Virus record (IMG/VR): IMGVR_UViG_3300037310_000131
Location: 9,446 to 73,445 of that record
Length of the DNA stretch: 64,000 nucleotides
Origin: a virus
Lineage: Duplodnaviria; Caudoviricetes
Reading direction: 5' to 3' (one strand)
Position 1 is the first letter of the stretch. Every line of letters begins with the position of its first letter. A program made the translations under genes and the position numbers. The notes under the pieces were generated by a model. The model ran no database searches. It worked only from the letters and a program-made list of their open reading frames with translations, and was not told the origin of the DNA. Positions 1-21,903 of the stretch are shown here, one piece after another.

Positions 1-146
1 GGGTGGAGTGTGCCCAGCCGTTTCCAGCCTTAACGACATCCCTCGGTCTTGGGGCTTGTGCCGGCCCGCTTTGCGCGGGCCTGTATTATGTAGAAAGTTG
101 AAGCTTAGCCAATAATAGTGTTGCCATTTGCCGCAGAAATCTATCA

Positions 147-593
147 ATGACGCGGATGGAAACCAGCAAAGCGAACATGCCACATGTCACAATCTACACA
201 GATGGTGGGTGCGATCCAAATCCCGGCCTTGGGTCGTGGGCGTATGTGTTGGTGTATGGCAAGCACCAAAAGGAGGGGTGCGGCGTCGAGGAGAGCTCGA
301 CCAACAATCGCGCCGAGTATATCGCCATGATCGAGGGGATGAAGGCCCTAAAGCGGCCGTGTAGGGTCACGATAGTCACCGATTCCATGAACAACGTATT
401 TCTGTTGCGAGCCGGCAGGGTGAAGTCGCACAAAAGAAAGCACCAAGATTTGGTCAACCAGATTCTCGACCTGATGGACATTCATGTTGTTGATTATCAA
501 ATCATTAAGGGGCATTCTGGGGTCGTCGGAAACGAGCGGTGTGACCAGCTTTGCCATCAGGCTAGAAGAGATTTTTTGAAAAAGTTTGCATAA
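147..593 (+). CDS. rnhA: Ribonuclease HI
   Basis: Motifs IYTDGG, TNNRAE, IVTDS and KGHSG..GNERCDQL. Confidence 0.93.
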   Translation: MTRMETSKANMPHVTIYTDGGCDPNPGLGSWAYVLVYGKHQKEGCGVEESSTNNRAEYIAMIEGMKALKRPCRVTIVTDSMNNVFLLRAGRVKSHKRKHQDLVNQILDLMDIHVVDYQIIKGHSGVVGNERCDQLCHQARRDFLKKFA

Positions 594-597
594 ATGC

Positions 598-626
598 TTG
601 ACGGCCCCGGCCACCGCGTGTTTCTG
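598..626 (+). promoter_or_regulatory. Putative sigma70-type promoter for the RNA island
   Basis: TTGACG at 598-603, 17-nt spacer, weak -10 (TTTCTG), directly upstream of the array. Confidence 0.35.
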
Positions 627-632
627 TGGTCC

Positions 633-793
633 CAGTTCAAGATGGCCTTCAGGGTTGAGCCACCATCAACCTGACTCGGGAAAGGCTTTCCGCAGAACCA
701 ATCCGCCAAGTGGCGAGAGGGTCTGAAGCGATGTTCATTTTAGTTGTAGAGGACAGTGAGCGGAACCCTGCGGGGTATGGCCTTGTCCTCAAC
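633..793 (+). ncRNA. Structured RNA of unknown family
   Basis: CTTCAG/CTGAAG closes three hairpins; a second hairpin GAGGACA/TGTCCTC follows; no credible ORF. Confidence 0.4.
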
Positions 794-795
794 AC

Positions 796-870
796 GCCTC
801 AGTGATGTAGGAGTAAACATACGTCGTTGCCAACGATGATACCAGAGTGCGAATCTCTGCTGGGGCACCA
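796..870 (+). tRNA. tRNA-Gly(GCC)
   Basis: Cloverleaf; loop TT-GCC-AA; T-loop TGCGAAT; CCA. Confidence 0.9.
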
Positions 871-875
871 ATTTC

Positions 876-950
876 GGGTCGCAAGCATTTCAAGCGATGC
901 GCTAGGCTTTTACCCTTGAGAACTCGGGGCAGTACCGAGGCGACCCACCA
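876..950 (+). tRNA. tRNA-Lys(TTT)
   Basis: Acceptor GGGTCGC/GCGACCC; loop CT-TTT-AC; T-loop GGCAGTA; CCA. Confidence 0.88.
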
Positions 951-956
951 ATTTAT

Positions 957-1031
957 CGCGACTGACCAAGCAAGCGCATGGGCCTGCCCGCAAAGCAGTG
1001 AAGCCGGGAGCGTTACCCGGAGTCGCGTCCA
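957..1031 (+). tRNA. tRNA-Cys(GCA)
   Basis: Acceptor CGCGACT/AGTCGCG; U73; loop CC-GCA-AA; CCA. Confidence 0.85.
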
Positions 1032-1069
1032 CTTAGTTGCCAGTTTGGTATTCAACTGCAACCTTCACC

Positions 1070-1142
1070 TGGGGAGAGGCGCAGGCTCGAATCCTGCACT
1101 GGGGTAAAATCTCAGTTCGTATAGCGGATAGTATACTCCCTG
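1070..1142 (+). ncRNA. Circularly permuted tRNA-like element
   Basis: Order is T-arm (GCAGG-CTCGAAT-CCTGC), loop-closed acceptor (ACTGGGGT-AAA-ATCTCAGT), D-arm (GTAT/ATAC); TGGGG pairs with CCCTG. Confidence 0.65.
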
Positions 1143-1257
1143 CTCCAGCTATAGGCGACACAATGCCACTCAGTCTTGTAAGAAAAGCGCAGCAGTTTTT
1201 CTTACATGGTGCTCACGAAAGTTGTGCGACAGCCGGGAGAGACCGACACCTGAACAT

Positions 1258-1334
1258 GGGCCAAAAGCATTGTTGGTAATGCGCCTCCTTTGCACGGAGA
1301 ATGCTGGCGGGTTCGACTCCCCCTTGGTCCACCA
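1258..1334 (+). tRNA. tRNA-Ala(TGC)
   Basis: G3:U70; loop TT-TGC-AC; T-loop TTCGACT; CCA. Confidence 0.9.
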
Positions 1335-1339
1335 ATTTC

Positions 1340-1415
1340 GTGCGCGTGGCTCATATAGCTGAGCACCATCCTTCCAAGCTGGCCCAAGCAGGTGCAAGTC
1401 CTGTCGCGCACTCCA
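1340..1415 (+). tRNA. tRNA-Gly(TCC)
   Basis: Acceptor GTGCGCG/CGCGCAC; loop CT-TCC-AA; CCA. Confidence 0.88.
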
Positions 1416-1418
1416 TTT

Positions 1419-1478
1419 GGTCCTGCGGGCACTGCCGCCCGCTCCCCTCGGGGGCACCTGAAAGAACAGGTCTGGACC
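1419..1478 (+). ncRNA. 60-nt four-way-junction RNA of unknown family
   Basis: Stems GGTCC/GGACC, GCGGGC/GCCCGC, CCCC/GGGG and CCTG/CAGG. Confidence 0.45.
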
Positions 1479-1486
1479 CCCTTTTT

Positions 1487-1573
1487 CCAGTCGTGCCAGA
1501 GCAGCAATTGGAGTGCGCTGTAAACGCATTGCCCCAGCGGGCTACATAGGTGCAAGTCCTTTCGACTGGACCA
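1487..1573 (+). tRNA. tRNA-Tyr(GTA) with C1:G72
   Basis: Acceptor CCAGTCG/CGACTGG; loop CT-GTA-AA; long variable arm; CCA. Confidence 0.88.
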
Positions 1574-1579
1574 CTTCAT

Positions 1580-1656
1580 TGTCTCGTAGCTCAGATAGTC
1601 AGAGCGCCCGCTTGATAAGCGGTAGGTCGTCGGTGCGAAACCGACCGGGACAACCA
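1580..1656 (+). tRNA. tRNA-Ile(GAT)
   Basis: Loop TT-GAT-AA; acceptor TGTCTCG/CGGGACA; CCA. Confidence 0.9.
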
Positions 1657-1657
1657 T

Positions 1658-1975
1658 TTACACCACGACAATTCCTTCACGGATTTCGTGATGGCAGTTC
1701 GAGCAAACCAAAACACGCTTCTTGGCTTCTTCTAAAAGAGCCTCAAAGTTCTGGCCATGACCCTTGGTAGGGATGCCAAGTGACCTTTGTTGTGGGTCGC
1801 GGTGGTGAAAGTGAAGTGCAGATATGCAGGTTTTGTAGCCACAAGCACTGCGCTCGCCGCCAAATAGAGCAACAAGCCGTTGCTTGTTCTTGAGCCTGTT
1901 TACCTTGATATGTGCGTAGTTCCCTGTGCGTTTCTTTGAACCACCGGGAGCGGTAATAACTTTTGAAATAGACAT
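1658..1975 (-). CDS. HNH endonuclease (homing-like) inside the tRNA array
   Basis: ACGY...ALHFHHRDP...LVCSNCHHEI; two expected Cys appear substituted. Confidence 0.75.
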   Translation of the reverse strand: MSISKVITAPGGSKKRTGNYAHIKVNRLKNKQRLVALFGGERSACGYKTCISALHFHHRDPQQRSLGIPTKGHGQNFEALLEEAKKRVLVCSNCHHEIREGIVVV

Positions 1976-2010
1976 AGCTAATCAAATGACGATTAGCATG
2001 GTCTGTCGAT

Positions 2011-2082
2011 AGGGCCGTGGCGAAGTCGCCAAGCAGAACTCCAAATCCTGTTATGGGAGCGCAATACTCTCCGGCTCTGCCA
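2011..2082 (+). tRNA. tRNA-Trp(CCA), reduced D-arm
   Basis: Acceptor AGGGCCG/CGGCTCT; loop CT-CCA-AA; CCA. Confidence 0.8.
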
Positions 2083-2088
2083 ATTTAT

Positions 2089-2199
2089 GTTAGAGATAGC
2101 AGTCACAGCGTACGTCGCGTTCTGGATGATCCTTCTTCCGGCGCGGCGTAAGAACTAGCAAATCAACAGGGCGAGCGGCCCACTCCGCCGCCCTTTAAC
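2089..2199 (+). ncRNA. Structured RNA of unknown family
   Basis: Closing stem GTTAGAG/CTTTAAC, long hairpin TACGTCGCG/CGCGGCGTA and hairpin GGGCG/CGCCC. Confidence 0.45.
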
Positions 2200-2204
2200 T
2201 TTCT

Positions 2205-2279
2205 GGGCGTGTAGCTGAGATAGATTAGCGCGTGTCTGAAGAACACGAGACGCTGGAGCGTTACCAGCCTAGCCCACCA
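2205..2279 (+). tRNA. tRNA-Phe(GAA)
   Basis: Loop CT-GAA-GA; two acceptor mismatches; CCA. Confidence 0.8.
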
Positions 2280-2284
2280 CTTTA

Positions 2285-2356
2285 TGCCGGGAGCTTCGGA
2301 AGCCGGCAAGGCTCATACCCTTGTCGAAGCACGTTCGACCCGTGCCCCAGCACCCA
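2285..2356 (+). tRNA. tRNA with CAT anticodon (Met or Ile2), tiny D-loop
   Basis: CAAGG-CT-CAT-AC-CCTTG; T-arm GCACG-TTCGACC-CGTGC; CCA. Confidence 0.7.
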
Positions 2357-2425
2357 TTTGGGCCAACGCAGTGAAAAGTACCGAAATGCCAAAGTAGCGA
2401 AAATCGAGTCGTTGTGCCCATTTAT

Positions 2426-2501
2426 CCATCCGAAGTGTTATCTGGTTGCACGTTCCGTTTGGGGCGGAATTGTCTCGGTTCAAATCCGGGCGGGTGGACC
2501 A
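2426..2501 (+). tRNA. tRNA-Pro(TGG)
   Basis: TTCCG-TT-TGG-GG-CGGAA; CCA. Confidence 0.88.
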
Positions 2502-2507
2502 CTTTAT

Positions 2508-2582
2508 GGGGCTATGGAGTAGTGGTAACTACAGCGCACTGTCCATGCGCAGTCCGGGGTTCGATTCCCCGTAGCCTCGCCA
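2508..2582 (+). tRNA. tRNA-Asp(GTC)
   Basis: GCGCA-CT-GTC-CA-TGCGC; G73; CCA. Confidence 0.9.
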
Positions 2583-2587
2583 TTTAT

Positions 2588-2663
2588 GCGCGATTAGAAT
2601 AGCGGCTAATTCGACAGTCCTACACACTGTTCATCGGGGGTTCGAGTCCCTCATTGCGCACCA
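2588..2663 (+). tRNA. tRNA-Val(TAC)
   Basis: ACAGT-CC-TAC-AC-ACTGT; CCA. Confidence 0.88.
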
Positions 2664-2688
2664 CTTTATTGTTGACTGCGTATATCTG

Positions 2689-2862
2689 GTGTGTACTGAA
2701 ACATGGATTAGTTGCCATATAGATAAAACCTTGCACAAGAACGGACAATGCCGGGCAACACATGGCAAAATAAGGTGTTATCAAAACGGATGCAGGTGCG
2801 AAAGGTGTCGCGCAGCAAACGCAGAGCGTTCTAGAATTTATAGAGCAAAGTCTTTATTGTAG
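2689..2862 (+). pseudogene. C-terminal remnant of an HNH-type endonuclease
   Basis: Frame reads VCTETWISCHIDKT...THGKIRCYQNGCRCERCRAAN, resembling the CxxCH-KT and HG-GCRC tail of phage HNH proteins; N-terminus absent. Confidence 0.5.
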
Positions 2863-2933
2863 AGAAGGCAAATGGCTAGCCGGTTGTCTGTTAAACAACG
2901 TCGTTGATAGTTCGATTCTATCCTCTACAGCCA
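2858..2933 (+). tRNA. tRNA-Asn(GTT)
   Basis: GTTGT-CT-GTT-AA-ACAAC; G73; CCA. Confidence 0.9.
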
Positions 2934-2937
2934 CTTC

Positions 2938-3012
2938 GGGTCGGTAGCTCAGCGGTAGAGCGTTCGATTGTTAATCGAATGGTCATTGGTTCAATCCCAA
3001 TCCGTCCCTCCA
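2938..3012 (+). tRNA. tRNA-Asn(GTT), second copy
   Basis: TTCGA-TT-GTT-AA-TCGAA; U73; CCA. Confidence 0.85.
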
Positions 3013-3013
3013 G

Positions 3014-3089
3014 CCCCGCTTAGCTCAGCAGTTAGAGCGTCTGCCTGACATGCAGAAGGCGGCTGGCGCGACACCAGCAGCGGGGACCA
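3014..3089 (+). tRNA. tRNA-Val(GAC)
   Basis: TCTGC-CT-GAC-AT-GCAGA; CCA. Confidence 0.9.
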
Positions 3090-3090
3090 T

Positions 3091-3166
3091 CGGAGCCTAG
3101 CCTAGCGGTTGAGGCACTTGTTTCGGGAACAAGACGAGGCGAGTTCGACTCTCGCGGCTCCGACCA
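3091..3166 (+). tRNA. tRNA-Pro(CGG)
   Basis: CTTGT-TT-CGG-GA-ACAAG; CCA. Confidence 0.92.
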
Positions 3167-3172
3167 TTTTAT

Positions 3173-3248
3173 GGACCATTGGTGTAGCGGCACTGCACGT
3201 CGAGCTTTGAACTCGAAGGTCTTGGGTCAGCACCAAGATGGTCTGCCA
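3173..3248 (+). tRNA. tRNA-Gln(TTG)
   Basis: TCGAG-CT-TTG-AA-CTCGA; CCA. Confidence 0.88.
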
Positions 3249-3253
3249 ATTTC

Positions 3254-3327
3254 CGCCCTCTGGTGTAGTAGTAGCACCACGGATTCTGAACCCGTTAGTC
3301 TTGGAGCGTAACCAAGGGGGGCGGCCA
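3254..3327 (+). tRNA. tRNA-Gln(CTG)
   Basis: ACGGA-TT-CTG-AA-CCCGT; CCA. Confidence 0.87.
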
Positions 3328-3390
3328 TTTTAGTCTCGCGTACCATGAGTACAAGGAGCAACGGCCCCGTATTTTTGCGCGGCCAGCCAA

Positions 3391-3610
3391 TTTCCAGCAG
3401 GAGCGCATTCGCTGTTCGCAAATTGCGAATGGAGGAAGTTCGCGTCTGCGCAACACACCGAGGCAGGGCTTGTTCTTTGGTTCAAGTCCGCTATGACCTC
3501 ATGGTAGCAGCAACCCAAACAGACTGAGGATGAGTGTTGTCCTGCGATGTCGGGTTGGGGCTTAGACAAATGAATGCGGTCAACAGAAACGCGGCTACGT
3601 CCACTGGAAA
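3391..3610 (+). ncRNA. rnpB: Minimal RNase P RNA (catalytic domain with vestigial S-domain)
   Basis: CR-I GAGGAAGTTCGCGT and CR-V ACAGAAACGCGGCT form P4; P1, P2, P3, P5, P6, P15-P17, the L15 GGT and CR-IV TAGACAAATG can all be drawn. Confidence 0.85.
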
Positions 3611-3617
3611 AATTTTT

Positions 3618-3692
3618 GGAAGCGAAGCCACAGTAGACGGGCACCCGGCTCTTACCCGGATTTCGTGAGGCTGCGACTGCCTCCGCTTCCAC
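3618..3692 (+). tRNA. tRNA-Lys(CTT)
   Basis: Acceptor GGAAGCG/CGCTTCC; loop CT-CTT-AC; CCA. Confidence 0.87.
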
Positions 3693-3696
3693 CACC

Positions 3697-3753
3697 TTCC
3701 AGTCAAGATGCCGTAAACTCACAGTGTGTGTTCGGGACCTTCATCTTGGCTGG
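3697..3753 (+). ncRNA. Long hairpin RNA of unknown family
   Basis: 12-bp stem CCAGTCAAGATG/CATCTTGGCTGG with inner pairing. Confidence 0.4.
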
Positions 3754-3760
3754 GTTCTTT

Positions 3761-3832
3761 GGCCGGTGATTCAGCAATCCACAGGGTTTCATAAGCCCAG
3801 TGAATCGGGGGCAGCACCCGGACCAGCCACCA
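3761..3832 (+). tRNA. tRNA with CAT anticodon (Met or Ile2), short D-arm
   Basis: AGGGT-TT-CAT-AA-GCCCA; T-loop GGCAGCA; CCA. Confidence 0.72.
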
Positions 3833-3836
3833 ATTT

Positions 3837-3912
3837 GCCTGTGAAGTTCATATAGCTGAACGTGTCCTTGGTAAGGACAATGCAGCGGGTGCAAGTCCCG
3901 CCTCAGGCTCCA
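3837..3912 (+). tRNA. tRNA-Thr(GGT)
   Basis: TGTCC-TT-GGT-AA-GGACA; CCA. Confidence 0.9.
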
Positions 3913-3913
3913 T

Positions 3914-3996
3914 GGGCGCGTGGTTAACTACGAATAGCAGAGTATTCTGCCTTAGAAGCAGACAGCCTTGGGGGTGCAAGTCCCTCCGCGCCTACC
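3914..3996 (+). tRNA. tRNA-Leu(TAG)
   Basis: TCTGC-CT-TAG-AA-GCAGA; A73; CCA. Confidence 0.82.
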
Positions 3997-4004
3997 AATT
4001 TCAT

Positions 4005-4079
4005 GGCCCAATCGACAACCAGCTAAGTCACTGCGCTTTCAACGCGGAGTACCGGGGGCAGCACCCGGTTGGGCTACCA
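4005..4079 (+). tRNA. tRNA-Glu(TTC)
   Basis: CTGCG-CT-TTC-AA-CGCGG; CCA. Confidence 0.87.
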
Positions 4080-4085
4080 CTTCAT

Positions 4086-4160
4086 GGCCGCATCGTATAG
4101 AAGTCAGTACGCTGCCCTCTCAAGGCAGGAACCCCGGAGCGTTACCGGGTGCGGCTACCA
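4086..4160 (+). tRNA. tRNA-Glu(CTC)
   Basis: CTGCC-CT-CTC-AA-GGCAG; CCA. Confidence 0.88.
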
Positions 4161-4163
4161 TTT

Positions 4164-4248
4164 CGCCAACTGGATGGAATAGCAGACACGGGGCACTCAA
4201 AACGCCCTGCCGAAAGGCGTCCCGGTGCAAGTCCGGGGTTGGCGACCA
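4164..4248 (+). tRNA. tRNA-Leu(CAA)
   Basis: Loop CT-CAA-AA; long variable arm; CCA. Confidence 0.87.
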
Positions 4249-4249
4249 C

Positions 4250-4342
4250 GGTCCCGTGGTGTAATGTTAGCACCGCTAGTTTTATAAACTGGGCGCACTA
4301 GATTGGTGCCGTGTGCTGGTTCAAGTCCAGCCGGGACTACCA
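4250..4342 (+). tRNA. tRNA with TAT anticodon (Ile-AUA) and long variable arm
   Basis: CTAGT-TT-TAT-AA-ACTGG; variable hairpin GCACTA/TGGTGC; acceptor GGTCCCG/CGGGACT; A73; CCA. Confidence 0.8.
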
Positions 4343-4346
4343 CTTT

Positions 4347-4421
4347 GGTCTGTAAGTGTTGAGAGATACACGCGGCTTTCGTAAAGCTGAATACTCGGAG
4401 CGTTACCGAGACGGACCTCCA
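4347..4421 (+). tRNA. tRNA-Thr(CGT)
   Basis: CGGCT-TT-CGT-AA-AGCTG; CCA. Confidence 0.88.
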
Positions 4422-4425
4422 TTTT

Positions 4426-4501
4426 GTTCTGCAAGCATTGCTGGCGATGCGGCTGCCTTGTAAGCAGCAGATAGTCGGTTCGATTCCGGCGCGGAACTCC
4501 A
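4426..4501 (+). tRNA. tRNA-Thr(TGT)
   Basis: GCTGC-CT-TGT-AA-GCAGC; CCA. Confidence 0.9.
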
Positions 4502-4502
4502 T

Positions 4503-4580
4503 CAGGAGCAGTAGTGTAACCGGCAAACACAGGAGCCTGTGAAGCTCCGGTAGAGAGTTCGAGCCTCTCCCTCCTGACCA
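4503..4580 (+). tRNA. tRNA-His(GTG), atypical acceptor
   Basis: GGAGC-CT-GTG-AA-GCTCC; A73, no genomic G-1, 2-nt bulge in the acceptor; CCA. Confidence 0.75.
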
Positions 4581-4584
4581 CTTT

Positions 4585-4660
4585 GCAAGACTCGGCAATG
4601 GATAGTCAGTCTCCCCGCGAAGGAGGTTTAGTCCCAGTTCAAGTCTGGGGTCTTGCGCCA
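4585..4660 (+). tRNA. tRNA-Arg(GCG)
   Basis: TCTCC-CC-GCG-AA-GGAGG; CCA. Confidence 0.83.
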
Positions 4661-4754
4661 TTTGCTTGACACAGATACCGATATTACAAATGCCGTTGCG
4701 AACTGTGTAGAAAAGCGTCTACAGAGGCGTCAAGGAAATGGAGACAATCACTTT

Positions 4755-4830
4755 GTCGCGTTCAGCCAAGCAGACAGGCGCTGGTCTTCTAAGCCAAGCA
4801 ATGCGGGTGCAACTCCTGCACGCGGCACCA
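4755..4830 (+). tRNA. tRNA-Arg(TCT)
   Basis: Loop CT-TCT-AA; acceptor GTCGCGT/ACGCGGC; CCA. Confidence 0.86.
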
Positions 4831-4833
4831 TTT

Positions 4834-4908
4834 GCTCCATTCGTCCAATGTATAGGGCCTGCGTCTTCGGAACGCATGATGAGGGTTAGATTCCTTCATG
4901 GAGCGCCA
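4834..4908 (+). tRNA. tRNA-Arg(TCG)
   Basis: TGCGT-CT-TCG-GA-ACGCA; T-loop TTAGATT; CCA. Confidence 0.87.
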
Positions 4909-4909
4909 C

Positions 4910-4985
4910 TTTCTCGTAGCCTAAGGGATAGGCCCCGGTTTCCTAAACCGTGCGCATGCAGGTTCGAGTCCTGTCGAGAAAGCCA
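4910..4985 (+). tRNA. tRNA-Arg(CCT)
   Basis: CCGGT-TT-CCT-AA-ACCGT; CCA. Confidence 0.88.
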
Positions 4986-4989
4986 CTTC

Positions 4990-5057
4990 GGGCCAAATAC
5001 AGATTCGATTGGTCCTTCGGGCCCAAGACGCGGGGGCGGTGCCCGCTTGGTCCACCA
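4990..5057 (+). ncRNA. ssrA: Mini-tmRNA (tRNA-like domain only)
   Basis: Acceptor GGGCCAA/TTGGTCC with G3:U70, A73 and CCA; stemless D-loop ending GATTCGA; GAC-GCGGG...CCCGC T-arm; P2 capped by cUUCGg. Confidence 0.8.
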
Positions 5058-5061
5058 CTTT

Positions 5062-5147
5062 GGAGACGCAATCCAGCAGGGCTGGAACGGGCCTTGAAAA
5101 CCCAGTGACGCGCAAGCGTTGGGATTCGACTTCTCGCGTCTCCGCCA
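5062..5147 (+). tRNA. tRNA-Ser(TGA)
   Basis: Loop CT-TGA-AA; long variable arm; G73; CCA. Confidence 0.85.
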
Positions 5148-5148
5148 C

Positions 5149-5236
5149 GGAGGGTGAACTGCTCAGGGAGCAGGGCGCTCTGGAAAGGCGTACGCCCGGT
5201 CAACCGGGTGGGTTTCGATTACTCCTCCCTCCGCCA
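5149..5236 (+). tRNA. tRNA-Ser(GGA)
   Basis: Loop CT-GGA-AA; long variable arm; CCA. Confidence 0.87.
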
Positions 5237-5240
5237 CTTT

Positions 5241-5326
5241 GGAAGCAACTGAGGGCAGTTCCTCAACCGGCCTCGAAACCCGGAGTGCCCGCAAGGGCAA
5301 TGGCGCAACTCCATTTGCTTCCGCCA
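5241..5326 (+). tRNA. tRNA-Ser(CGA)
   Basis: Loop CT-CGA-AA; long variable arm; CCA. Confidence 0.85.
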
Positions 5327-5327
5327 T

Positions 5328-5418
5328 GGTGAGTTAAGCAGCCGAGGCGCTGCCGGGGTTTGCTAAACCCTTGGACCGGCTAGCCCCGGTTGTGTGGCAG
5401 GAACACAACTCACCGCCA
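5328..5418 (+). tRNA. tRNA-Ser(GCT)
   Basis: GGGGT-TT-GCT-AA-ACCCT; long variable arm; CCA. Confidence 0.87.
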
Positions 5419-5476
5419 CTTTGTTCTTGCAATCGCCGCCGGGCGGGTACAAGGATGTCAACGAAACGCAACTAAG

Positions 5477-6112
5477 ATGAGCATCGCAAACATACTGAAC
5501 AGGCCCGTGCTTGTTCTGAATGCCAACTGGCAGGCCATCAGCGCCGCGAAGTCGGTCAAGCGCGCAATCGAGGACATGACAAGCGGAAGGCCCGAAGACG
5601 GATGGCTACCGCCTTTTCGCGGCATGGATGTCGAGCTAAACGCAGACGGCACCCTGTTCTACGCCAACCCGGTTGACTGGGACGAATGGGTGCGCCTTCC
5701 TGTGCGCCCCGGCATAGACGAGTTCGTTTCCACGGCGTTCCTCAAGATTCGCGCTCCCCGCGTCATCATATCGCGCAACTACAACAAGTCGCGCGTGCGC
5801 GTGGTTGCGCTTTCCAAGGGGGCCATCAAGCGTCGCGACGGGGGCCAGTGCCAGTACTGCCACAGGTTCTTCCCGATGGACGAGCTGAACATTGACCACG
5901 TGATTCCGCAGCACCATGGCGGCGAGGACACGTGGGAAAACATGGTTTGCTCTTGCATTACTTGCAATTCGCGGAAGGGTCACAAGTTCAACCACGAGAT
6001 TGGATACAAGCTGCTCAAGGAGCCGTCCAGTCCCGCGCCGGTTGCGGAAACAGCCATCTACATTGAAATCAAACACCCAACATGGACACCATTCCTCAAC
6101 CACCTGAAATGA
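5477..6112 (+). CDS. HNH endonuclease (McrA/HNH_5-like)
   Basis: VLVLNANW N-terminus; RDGGQCQYC...NIDHVIP..HGG..TWENMVCSCITCNSRKG. Confidence 0.87.
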   Translation: MSIANILNRPVLVLNANWQAISAAKSVKRAIEDMTSGRPEDGWLPPFRGMDVELNADGTLFYANPVDWDEWVRLPVRPGIDEFVSTAFLKIRAPRVIISRNYNKSRVRVVALSKGAIKRRDGGQCQYCHRFFPMDELNIDHVIPQHHGGEDTWENMVCSCITCNSRKGHKFNHEIGYKLLKEPSSPAPVAETAIYIEIKHPTWTPFLNHLK

Positions 6113-6501
6113 GCGAGAACATCGGAGAGGAGTCCATTCGCAAAATGCACGAGTGGATGAGGCTCCAGCGCGGCGAGCGCAACACCAACTTCTACCTCAC
6201 GTCCGCCATACTCTACCTGTGCGGCAGGGTTGAGGAGCTCGAGCGGAAGCTGGTAGAGCGCTCCCGCGCTTTCCAGCCGCCCGCTCCGCAGGATGTCGAG
6301 GAATATGCAAAGACCATCAACTTCACGGTTGACGGCGAGGCGTTTTGCTCATTCTATGAAGCTCGCGGGTGGATGATGGGCAAGGCCAAGATGAAGTCTT
6401 GGAAGGCCGCAGTCCGCACGTGGAAGCAGCGCCGCATGCCAGAGCAGAAGAAGGCCGGCCGCCTGCCAGACAATCTCTCCAACCTACATGACATCCCATA
6501 A
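6109..6501 (+). CDS. Phage replication initiator/replisome organizer-like protein
   Basis: FQPP..DVEEY...FCSFYEARGW..MKSWKAAVRTW motif; directly upstream of DnaB. Confidence 0.6.
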   Translation: MSENIGEESIRKMHEWMRLQRGERNTNFYLTSAILYLCGRVEELERKLVERSRAFQPPAPQDVEEYAKTINFTVDGEAFCSFYEARGWMMGKAKMKSWKAAVRTWKQRRMPEQKKAGRLPDNLSNLHDIP

Positions 6502-10927: not shown

Positions 10928-12541
10928 ATGTCGCAAGGACCGCTAATTGGAGACAACACAAATCTGCTGCTTAACAAAATCAGCATGGCTGGCTACCGAC
11001 CTAAACTAAGCGATCCGCAGAATCTTCTCATCAAGAAGCTCGTCAACGCGATCAATCAGCTACAGACTGGAGGTGGCTCGACGGGTCCGACCGGATACAC
11101 TGGATACACGGGCCCAGCAGGTGGCGGCGGTGCGACTGGGCCCACGGGTTATACGGGACCGGCTGGTGCGGATGGCGCGACTGGTCCAACTGGTTACACT
11201 GGCTACACCGGCACGGCAGGCGCTCCGGGATCAACCGGCTACACAGGCTACACCGGACCCGCTGGTATTGATGGTGCCACTGGCTACACAGGCTACACCG
11301 GACCCGCTGGAGTAGACGGGGCGACGGGCCCCACGGGATACACGGGTTACACAGGTCCCGGCAACTTTACCGGATACACGGGCCCTACGGGTTACACGGG
11401 ATATACCGGGCCCAATGGGTCAAACGGAAGCACCGGCCCAACTGGTTACACCGGCCCGGCTGGTCCTGATGGTCTTGACGGCCCTACTGGCTACACGGGA
11501 TACACCGGTCCACGCGGAGAGACTGGGCCAACCGGACCAACAGGCTATACTGGTCCCGGAAACTTCACTGGATACACGGGGCCCACTGGATACACGGGCC
11601 CGGATGGAGCGACTGGCCCCACCGGGTACACTGGCCCCCAAGGCCCAACCGGATTCACCGGCTACACTGGCCCGGGCAACTTCACCGGCTACACTGGCTA
11701 TACTGGTTACACCGGTCCTCAGGGGGCAACCGGGTTCACTGGCTACACCGGCCCAATTGGTCCCACTGGCGCAACTGGCTACACGGGCCCGGGCAACTTC
11801 ACAGGATACACTGGACCAACTGGCCCGACCGGATACACCGGACCGGGGAATTTTACGGGGTATACAGGCTACACTGGGCCCGCCGGTCCAACCGGCTACA
11901 CTGGCGACACGGGTCCGCAGGGCCCGACAGGACCGACTGGGTACACCGGTTATACTGGTCCCGGCAATTTTACCGGATACACTGGCTACACGGGGTACAC
12001 CGGTTATACTGGTCCCGGCAACTTCACTGGGTACACCGGGCCAACGGGACCAACCGGGTACACCGGCCCAGCGGGCCCGACTGGCCCAACCGGCTACACC
12101 GGTTACACGGGACCATCAGCGCTCTACGCCGCAGCCACGGCTGGAACGACGACCTCAACAAGCTTGGTTGACCTCAATGGTCTTTCGCTTGCCCTTACTG
12201 CTGGCACTTGGATTTTTGAGGCACTCATAAGCGGAAGCGCGGGCACTGGAACGGCTGGTGCAAAGTTTGGTGTACAGTACTCAGGCTCAACTACGTCTAT
12301 TGATGCGCTTCATGTCGGCCAGCTCAACACCACGGGGTGGGCGGCAACGGCAAGGATAACGGCCTTCAATACCGCCAGCACGACTGTTATGACAACCAGT
12401 GCGGCCCAGTGCCATGTAAAGATATTCGGCAAGGTTGTTGTTGCTGGTTCCGGCAACCTTACCATCAGGGGCCTAAAGGTCACATCCGGCACCCTGACCT
12501 ACAACGGCTCGTCTATGATGTGGGCATTCAAGGTGGCCTAA
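10928..12541 (+). CDS. Collagen-like (Gly-X-Thr repeat) fibre protein
   Basis: Several hundred residues of GPTGYT/GNFT triplets with a globular beta-rich C-terminus. Confidence 0.85.

Positions 12542-18028: not shown

Positions 18029-21902
<3,874 letters not shown>

Positions 21903-21903
<1 letters not shown>

Follow-up and report, generated by a model that had tools for sequence, protein, structure and literature searches.

The RNA of ribonuclease P (RNase P) is one of two universal ribozymes and is regarded as cellular, essential, and vertically inherited. In bacterial enzymes, the protein RnpA contacts the paired regions P2–P4 and the conserved regions CR-IV and CR-V of the RNA; the GGU of loop L15 is the pairing site for the tRNA 3′-RCCA, and the wording AAG[U]C in P4, with its bulged U, is near-universal. 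In this study, a 220-nt element in the tRNA array of an uncultured freshwater phage was analyzed. The DNA studied, called the window, is a stretch of 64,000 nucleotides, bases 9446–73445 of the 73.4-kb IMG/VR virus record IMGVR_UViG_3300037310_000131, which is estimated to be 81% complete. By its sequence, the element is strongly supported as a homologue of RNase P RNA of the bacterial type; its catalytic domain (C-domain) is complete, and the element lies in a phage tRNA array.

In the specificity domain (S-domain) of RNase P RNA, CR-II and CR-III form a T-loop anchor, which stacks against the elbow of the tRNA; the archaeal type T enzyme is without this anchor, and pairing of L15 with RCCA provides an alternative hold on the substrate (PMC10966300). 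The isolated C-domain of the Escherichia coli RNA cleaves, with a P6-like pairing needed and P18 dispensable (PMC5839562). Phages are mentioned only as substrate sources in a 2024 historical review of RNase P, and the 5′ processing of phage tRNAs is ascribed to cellular RNase P in the paper on theta ribozymes (PMC10879173). No description of a phage-encoded RNase P RNA was found in full-text literature searches.

Catalytic Domain and Its Covariation

Two tools were used to assess the structure. A1 is a structure-blind MAFFT alignment of 18 distinct homologues, in which pairs were counted for the structure read from the window. R1 is a covariance model built from 14 relatives, including the cultured Stenotrophomonas phage vB_SmaS-DLP_6 (DLP_6) and leaving the window out; it holds P3, P4, P5, P15, P16, and P17 only and is without P1. 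E. coli rnpB, which encodes M1 RNA, was taken from NC_000913.3 for comparison. The parts of the element in the window are as follows.

3391–3610, + strand: whole candidate miniature RNase P RNA gene, from the 5′ to the 3′ strand of P1; 220 nt
3391–3397 / 3604–3610, + strand: P1; all 7 pairs covary, 72% of cells paired
3404–3410 / 3572–3578, + strand: P2, CGCAUUC / GAAUGCG; 5 of 7 pairs change on both sides, 87–88% of cells paired
3412–3432, + strand: P3 hairpin; 92% of cells paired, 7 of 8 pairs covary; aligned by R1 with E. coli P3
3432–3445, pairing with 3589–3596, + strand: CR-I (GAGGAAGUUC) and the P4 5′ strand with bulged U3440
3446–3449 / 3507–3510, + strand: P5, CUGC / GCAG; 94% of cells paired, all 4 pairs covary
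3451–3456 / 3534–3539, + strand: P6 pseudoknot, CAACAC / GUGUUG; 3′ strand in the P16/17 hairpin loop
3457–3505, + strand: reduced S-domain stub; same architecture in about 20 relatives
3512–3513, + strand: J5/15 AA, counterpart of E. coli A248-A249; aligned with GGAGCAAGGCCAAAUAG of M1 RNA
3514–3516 / 3557–3559, + strand: P15, CCC / GGG; 91% of cells paired, all 3 pairs covary
3522–3551, + strand: P16/P17-like hairpin whose loop bears the P6 3′ strand; helices 98% and 85% paired, covarying
3553–3555, + strand: L15 GGU; invariant in the 18 sequences, aligned with G292-G293-U294 of M1 RNA
3563–3573, + strand: CR-IV (UAGACAAAUGA); TAGA..AATGA invariant in the 18 sequences
3583–3597, + strand: CR-V (ACAGAA) and the P4 3′ strand (ACGCGGCU), then A; ACAGAA and GGCTA invariant

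The helices and motifs of RNase P RNA listed in an initial annotation of the window were all found, within one base of the positions given there. The absence of P18 was also borne out, as 3 nt join the 3′ strand of P15 (3559) to CR-IV (3563). The P4 5′ strand follows the GAGGAAG of CR-I and reads A3437-G-U-[bulged U3440]-CGCGU3445. In the 18-sequence alignment, GAGGAAG-UC was invariant and the bulged U was present in all sequences; the CR-I/P4 block of the window aligned position for position with E. coli GAGGAAAGUCC. J5/15 lay within a GCAA...AAACAG block that was invariant or nearly so. The compensatory changes in P4 and P6 that the annotation had named as a check on its reading were present: 4 pairs of P4 and all 6 pairs of P6 changed on both sides. 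Variants of P6 were CAACAC/GUGUUG in the window, AACC/GGUU in locus L131, CUGCU/AGCAG in L123, and CAAUCA/UGAUUG in L012, and those of P15 were CCC/GGG, CUC/GAG, CAC/GUG, and CGU/ACG.

In A1, 82.0% of 1064 cells paired, versus 33–43% when the partners were slid by 1–3 columns. The covariation score was 0.528 versus at most 0.138 after sliding, none of 500 shuffles reached the observed values, and 51 of 64 pairs changed on both sides. By helix, the paired cells decreased from 97.9% in P4 through P5, P3, P15, P2 (88%), and P1 to 71% in P6. P2 and P6, both absent from R1, were tested again in A4, an R1-made alignment of 24 members; they paired in 81% of cells versus 25–47% when slid, with a covariation of 0.555 versus at most 0.203 and 0 of 500 shuffles reaching it. 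In both tests the structure was read from one included sequence, which favours that row alone. The relatives had diverged, with a mean column identity of 41–50%, and were not assembly copies of a single sequence. Pairing and covariation in the family are far beyond chance.

On the 64-kb window, R1 gave a single match at 3400–3598 with 125.5 bits (E 2.7e-37), covering model positions 1–189 of 189. Members of the family scored 65–182 bits. With filters off, R1 also gave an end-to-end alignment with E. coli M1 RNA (40.3 bits, E 5e-13), in which 143 nt of S-domain and the 24-nt P18 were handled as insertions. Local alignment of the window to M1 RNA was less telling: CR-I alone was not significant, and the CR-IV/CR-V score was reached by 10 of 2000 shuffles. 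In E. coli K-12 (L146), a second, weak R1 match of 7.2 bits was seen just downstream of rnpB at 231–390 on the minus strand; it holds a repeat of the rnpB 3′ wording, AAGAUGAAUGACUGUCCACGAC.

Curated models gave a divided answer to the covariance check proposed in the initial annotation. When only 3385–3620 (236 nt) was searched, with laxer filters than in the longer searches, the RNaseP_arch model (RF00373) aligned 3393–3608 with 26.9 bits (E 2.7e-6). The match spanned model positions 1–288, skipped the S-domain by local ends, and fell below the gathering score of 84. This match is real but sub-threshold support. No match to the type T model (RF02357) was reported, and RF00373 was the RNase P clan match retained. 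The archaeal model is probably best within the clan because archaeal type A RNAs are also without P18, P13, and P14. No RNase P match was obtained by an Rfam E-value search of the 771 nt around the element, and none by a search of the contig with RF00010 (RNaseP_bact_a). A gathering-score scan of 14 family loci also gave no RNase P, and an E-value search of the DLP_6 element gave nothing. Rfam thresholds miss the whole phage family, which is an annotation gap.

A coding reading of the element was rejected: the overlapping open reading frames (ORFs; 130, 60, and 71 amino acids) had no Pfam match, and the helix covariation opposes coding.

Specificity-Domain Stub and Phage Family

The initial annotation described a minimal RNase P RNA with its catalytic domain intact and its S-domain deleted. 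The first part is upheld by the R1 score and the covariation; the second requires correction, as a conserved stub of about 50 nt is kept. In the window, 49 nt (3457–3505) lie between the P6 5′ and P5 3′ strands. The single stem-loop drawn in that annotation is a two-helix stub with a conserved internal loop, seen across the family. The stub consists of a basal helix (ACC-GAGG / CCUC-AU-GGU), a 5′ strand CAG, a hairpin at 3466–3489, and a 3′ strand GCUAUGA. The full S-domain (P7–P14) with the CR-II/CR-III T-loop anchor is not present between P6 and the P5 3′ strand.

The basal helix covaried in the relatives (CGCGG/CCGCG, CUUGG/CCAAG, CGUGG/CCACG, GGUAG/CUACC, and UGUGG/CCACA). An automated test of this helix was moderately discriminating, with 57% perfect pairing with the own partner versus 29% with the partners of other sequences. 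In about 20 relatives, the flanking strands were conserved, the 5′ one as GAG(A) and the 3′ one as CGUUnnUA, and the window departs slightly from this consensus with CAG and GCUAUGA. Larger phage forms (L150 and L125) retain the stub behind an extra hairpin or further S-domain. By position and wording, the stub looks like the P10/11-CR-II-P12-CR-III core of the S-domain. The conserved strands GAG and CGUUnnUA resemble CR-II and CR-III, but the 5′ one is probably not long enough to form two interleaved T-loops.

Relatives were sought with a pattern running from CR-IV to CR-V (TAGAYRAATGA, 7–11 nt, ACAGAA, 4–5 nt, GGCT). It matched 25 IMG/VR contigs of 16 to 385 kb, where about 2 would be expected by chance on a rough estimate of collection size. 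In nearly all 25, GAGGAAGYUC lay only 116–210 nt upstream, versus about 270 nt in full-size bacterial RNAs. ARAGORN found tRNAs at 20 of the 25 family loci scanned, including the window's own. The element belongs to a conserved family in the tRNA clusters of many phages. An insert is present between P15 and CR-IV in the larger relatives L121, L125, L139, L136, and DLP_6. The same pattern occurred in only 10 places in 596 Gb of prokaryote genomes: four were strong mini-type copies on short contigs of metagenome-assembled genomes (MAGs), and the remaining matches include ordinary full-size rnpB genes. From this near-absence, the mini form is essentially a phage feature. A first, loose DNA pattern was discarded; its matches were mostly chance, and only L012, L059, and L111 were real. 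The DnaB gene used as bait for related viral loci recovered none.

The window element and its flanks had no blastn match among INPHARED phages. With a relative as query, blastn against INPHARED found the huge-phage genomes LR745206.1 and LR756501.1/LR756503.1 and Stenotrophomonas phage vB_SmaS-DLP_6. In this cultured phage (L145, KU682439.2), an unannotated member lies at about 105,780–106,010, just upstream of a tRNA-Arg gene; it scored 141 bits to R1 and carries a P18-like insert. The cultured member makes the idea of a phage RNase P directly testable.

Other structured RNAs were seen at family loci. Among 14 of them, two had transfer-messenger RNA (tmRNA) genes and one a permuted tmRNA gene. 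In L142 (IMGVR_UViG_3300044998_000260), a mini RNase P RNA, a GOLLD RNA (198 bits), a tmRNA, and a group I intron lie within about 8 kb, with about 18 tRNAs around them. In L133 (IMGVR_UViG_3300028591_000212), a circularly permuted RNase P RNA resembling type B was read on the minus strand at about 780–1150. Its order is CR-IV, P2 3′ strand, CR-V with the P4 3′ strand, a 6-nt loop at the place of P1, P2 5′ strand, P3, and CR-I onward. This permuted RNA begins right after a tRNA and ends in a second, partial CR-IV, as expected from tandem duplication.

tRNA Array, Proposed Function, and Alternatives

The element lies between tRNA-Gln and a tRNA-Lys-like gene within the array, whose tRNAs are its presumed substrates.

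796–4985, + strand: tRNA array; 24 tRNAs called by ARAGORN, 3 by Rfam only, and 1 hand-read cloverleaf, about 28 in total
3618–3694, + strand: tRNA-Lys(CUU)-like gene; hand-read cloverleaf with ACCA tail and non-canonical T-loop UGCGACU

The tRNAs found by Rfam only are at 3837–3909, 3914–3994, and 4755–4827, and the tRNA-Lys(CUU)-like gene was called by neither ARAGORN nor Rfam. CCA is encoded by 24 of 24 ARAGORN tRNAs of the window, and many spacers in the array are just 1–7 nt long. The junctions of the element resemble those of its neighbours: the sequence ...CCA-AUUU stands upstream, as at tRNAs, and the tRNA-like gene begins within 7 nt downstream. A cut at the 5′ end of this gene would determine roughly where the ribozyme's 3′ end lies.

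The best explanation of these data is probably a mini bacterial-type RNase P RNA gene whose product cuts phage pre-tRNAs together with host RnpA, a reading that draws on comparison of sequences. The RNA would be co-transcribed with the tRNA array and released by the cuts that free its neighbours. After binding host RnpA, it would remove the 5′ leaders from the closely packed phage pre-tRNAs. Substrates would be held mainly by pairing of the encoded 3′-CCA with the L15 GGU and by their acceptor stem and leader, and the tRNA elbow would be read little or in an altered way. The phage would gain extra or host-independent capacity for tRNA 5′ processing during infection. A search for rnpA (PF00825) found none in the window's contig or in five other carrier records; among the records searched, both DLP_6 and a 357-kb phage with terminal repeats are complete. 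Use of host RnpA and cutting of pre-tRNAs would fit the absence of rnpA from these six records, the CCA-encoding tRNAs, and the short spacers.

Several results weigh against this proposal. Rfam at gathering thresholds reported only tRNAs and no RNase P family in the window. The minimum-free-energy fold of the element was no better than shuffles (z = −0.98), which is expected because the RNA is pseudoknotted. Beside the catalytic bulge, P4 carries two compensated exchanges, A67-U357 to G-C and G68-C356 to U·G or C-G. The tRNAs of several family loci lack an encoded CCA, e.g., L136 (0/24) and L106 (0/11), though the L15 GGU is invariant; the link to CCA therefore does not hold across the family. 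It is also not evident why a second RNA would be required when the host's RNase P is both stable and essential.

The departure of P4 from the universal AAG[U]C and the reduced S-domain would also suit a non-cutting RNA that only resembles RNase P RNA. Such an RNA would act as a decoy or regulator, binding host RnpA or competing with M1 RNA or pre-tRNAs, and would shift tRNA maturation toward the phage. The RNase P-like RNA of camelpox virus, the only virus-encoded one found in print, showed no pre-tRNA processing in vitro (PMC3001073). A decoy would not need P6, P15, the L15 GGU, the J5/15 AA, or the bulged U, yet all of these are conserved or covarying across diverged phages, and each changed pair in P4 is compensated, which would be expected if helix geometry matters. 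A decoy role is thus doubtful. An element without any function, whether a decaying fragment of host rnpB or a chance resemblance in a tRNA spacer, would explain the unmet Rfam gathering scores and the insignificant CR-I-only alignment to M1 RNA. This reading is very improbable: more than 20 distinct homologues occur in unrelated viral contigs with compensatory changes in every helix, the leave-one-out R1 score is high, and the mini form is nearly absent from the prokaryote genomes apart from short MAG contigs. The helix covariation among homologues contradicts a pseudogene or chance origin.

An active RNase P RNA might also work without host RnpA, either with an unrecognised phage protein or protein-free, possibly for tRNAs with altered elbows. 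A novel cofactor could hide among the window proteins, most of which had no Pfam or PHROG match, and in about half of the phage's tRNAs the T-loop has G55 and the D-loop lacks GG. No element-linked protein gene stood out in the loci inspected, where the neighbours were tRNAs or unrelated ORFs; the RnpA-contact regions (P2–P4, CR-IV, and CR-V) are the best conserved in the family; and the altered elbows are confined to the window phage among family loci. Independence from RnpA is accordingly an unlikely option, and pre-tRNA cutting with host RnpA is the preferred reading.

The tRNA elbows of the window phage were inspected separately. Non-canonical T-loops were present in 11 of 24 ARAGORN tRNAs and in four tRNA-like genes (3618–3694, 3837–3912, 3914–3997, and 4755–4830). 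G replaces U at position 55 in 13 of these 15 T-loops (UGCAAGU, UGCGAAU, AGCGUUA, and CGCGACA), and nearly all of these tRNAs have AG in place of GG in the D-loop (AUAG and AGCAG). The D-loop GG was found in 2 of 11 non-canonical versus 12 of 13 canonical tRNAs (Fisher p = 5e-4). The elbow looks to co-vary, with A18:G55 replacing G18:Ψ55. At other family loci the tRNAs were about 100% canonical.

These elbows raise a tentative and rather unlikely idea, namely a semi-private channel of tRNA maturation, in which the phage RNA is adapted to the remodelled tRNAs (about half of the set) through L15-CCA pairing. Host RNase P, which reads the elbow with its T-loop anchor, would process G55/AG tRNAs poorly. 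The phage RNA, with its trimmed S-domain and stub strands off the family consensus (CAG and GCUAUGA instead of GAG and CGUUnnUA), would process them. If this were true, phage mini RNase P RNAs would generally be active ribozymes that free the phage tRNA supply from host control.

Other features of the window were recorded. Between tRNA-Gln and the element, a 59-nt unit (3331–3389) has two small hairpins and is not a cloverleaf; it terminates in GCCAGCCA and then AUUU, as at tRNA junctions. At 3697–3836, a stable 57-nt hairpin (about 3698–3754) is followed by a tRNA-like stretch (about 3750–3834) that has CAU in its anticodon loop and a non-canonical T-arm and ends in CCA near 3834. This stretch is a possible tRNA, called by neither ARAGORN nor Rfam. 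RNase H is encoded upstream of the array, and an HNH endonuclease, a DnaB-type helicase, and collagen-repeat proteins downstream; most large window ORFs matched no Pfam or PHROG family. Two large ORFs, 10928–12541 and 18307–21903, contain long collagen triple-helix repeats (Pfam PF01391, E 1e-39 and 8e-50) and are probably fibre or decoration proteins. A promoter and terminator scan of window positions 1–6500 gave nothing informative. Only two freshwater DNA metagenome runs, possibly its source, were listed as containing the stretch, with no RNA dataset among them.

Comparison with Known RNase P RNAs

A conserved, naturally miniaturised RNA carried by many phages would count as the first plausible RNase P ribozyme encoded by a virus. 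It would offer enzymology a natural minimal catalytic core of about 180–230 nt, with P6 needed and P18 absent, as C-domain experiments predict. It would also add tRNA 5′ maturation to the translation steps borne by phages, beside tRNAs, tmRNA, and theta ribozymes.

The phage RNA shares with bacterial type A RNA (E. coli M1 RNA, RF00010) the order and pairing of P1–P6, P15, and P16/17 and the bulged U in P4. The J5/15 AA, the L15 GGU, CR-IV UAGAnnAAUGA, and CR-V ACAGAA...GGCUnA are also common to both. The blocks of M1 RNA and the window correspond one to one: GAGGAAAGUCCGGG versus GAGGAAGUUCGCG, GGAGCAAGGCCAAAUAG versus GCAGCAACCCAAACAG, CCGGGUAGGCUGC versus UCGGGUUGGGGC, and UAGAUGAAUGA-CUGUC...ACAGAACCCGGCUUA versus UAGACAAAUGA-AUGCG...ACAGAAACGCGGCUA. 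In P2 and P4, the strands differ in sequence between the two RNAs, while their complementarity is preserved. The phage RNA is 220 nt long, whereas M1 RNA has 377 nt. Unlike M1 RNA, it is without P18, P8, P9, P13, and P14, and its S-domain is a stub of about 50 nt instead of about 150 nt; it is encoded by a phage within a tRNA array and scores below the RF00010 threshold. P4 reads AGU[U]C across the phage family but AAG[U]C in E. coli, Citrobacter, and a Pseudomonadales MAG. In a Mycoplasmataceae MAG (L153, JAIRKL010000008.1, 374–679, minus strand), a cellular rnpB of about 306 nt has GAGGAAGUUC in place of the canonical GAGGAAAGUCC. It shares the CR-I/P4 wording of the family, so AGU[U]C is not unique to phages. 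The shared wording may point to the donor lineage or have arisen by convergence.

Archaeal type T RNA (Thermoproteaceae, Pyrobaculum, about 200 nt, RF02357) likewise keeps the C-domain, has mostly lost the S-domain, and has an L15 complementary to RCCA (PMC3579882, PMC10966300). Type T is a cellular and essential RNA of an archaeal lineage and works with archaeal proteins (Pop5, Rpp30, and L7Ae), from which the phage RNA differs. Unlike type T, the phage RNA has bacterial CR-IV/CR-V wording and the P6 pseudoknot, and its Rfam match was RNaseP_arch, not RNaseP-T. The engineered C-domain RNAs (Eco CP RPR and Pfu C-domain; PMC5839562) keep and drop a matching set of features. They are laboratory constructs of low efficiency, whereas the phage RNA is natural and conserved and has an S-domain stub.

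Among viral RNAs, that of camelpox virus is also virus-encoded and RNase P RNA-like, but it belongs to a eukaryotic virus, does not cleave pre-tRNA in vitro, has no tRNA-array context, and is no relative of the phage family (PMC3001073). Theta ribozymes, which are like those of hepatitis delta virus, are also encoded by phages beside phage tRNA genes and have been proposed to assume one of the steps in maturing tRNAs (PMC10879173). They are small, cis-cleaving RNAs on 3′ trailers with an unrelated fold, and the phage RNase P RNA differs from them in these respects (PMC10879173).

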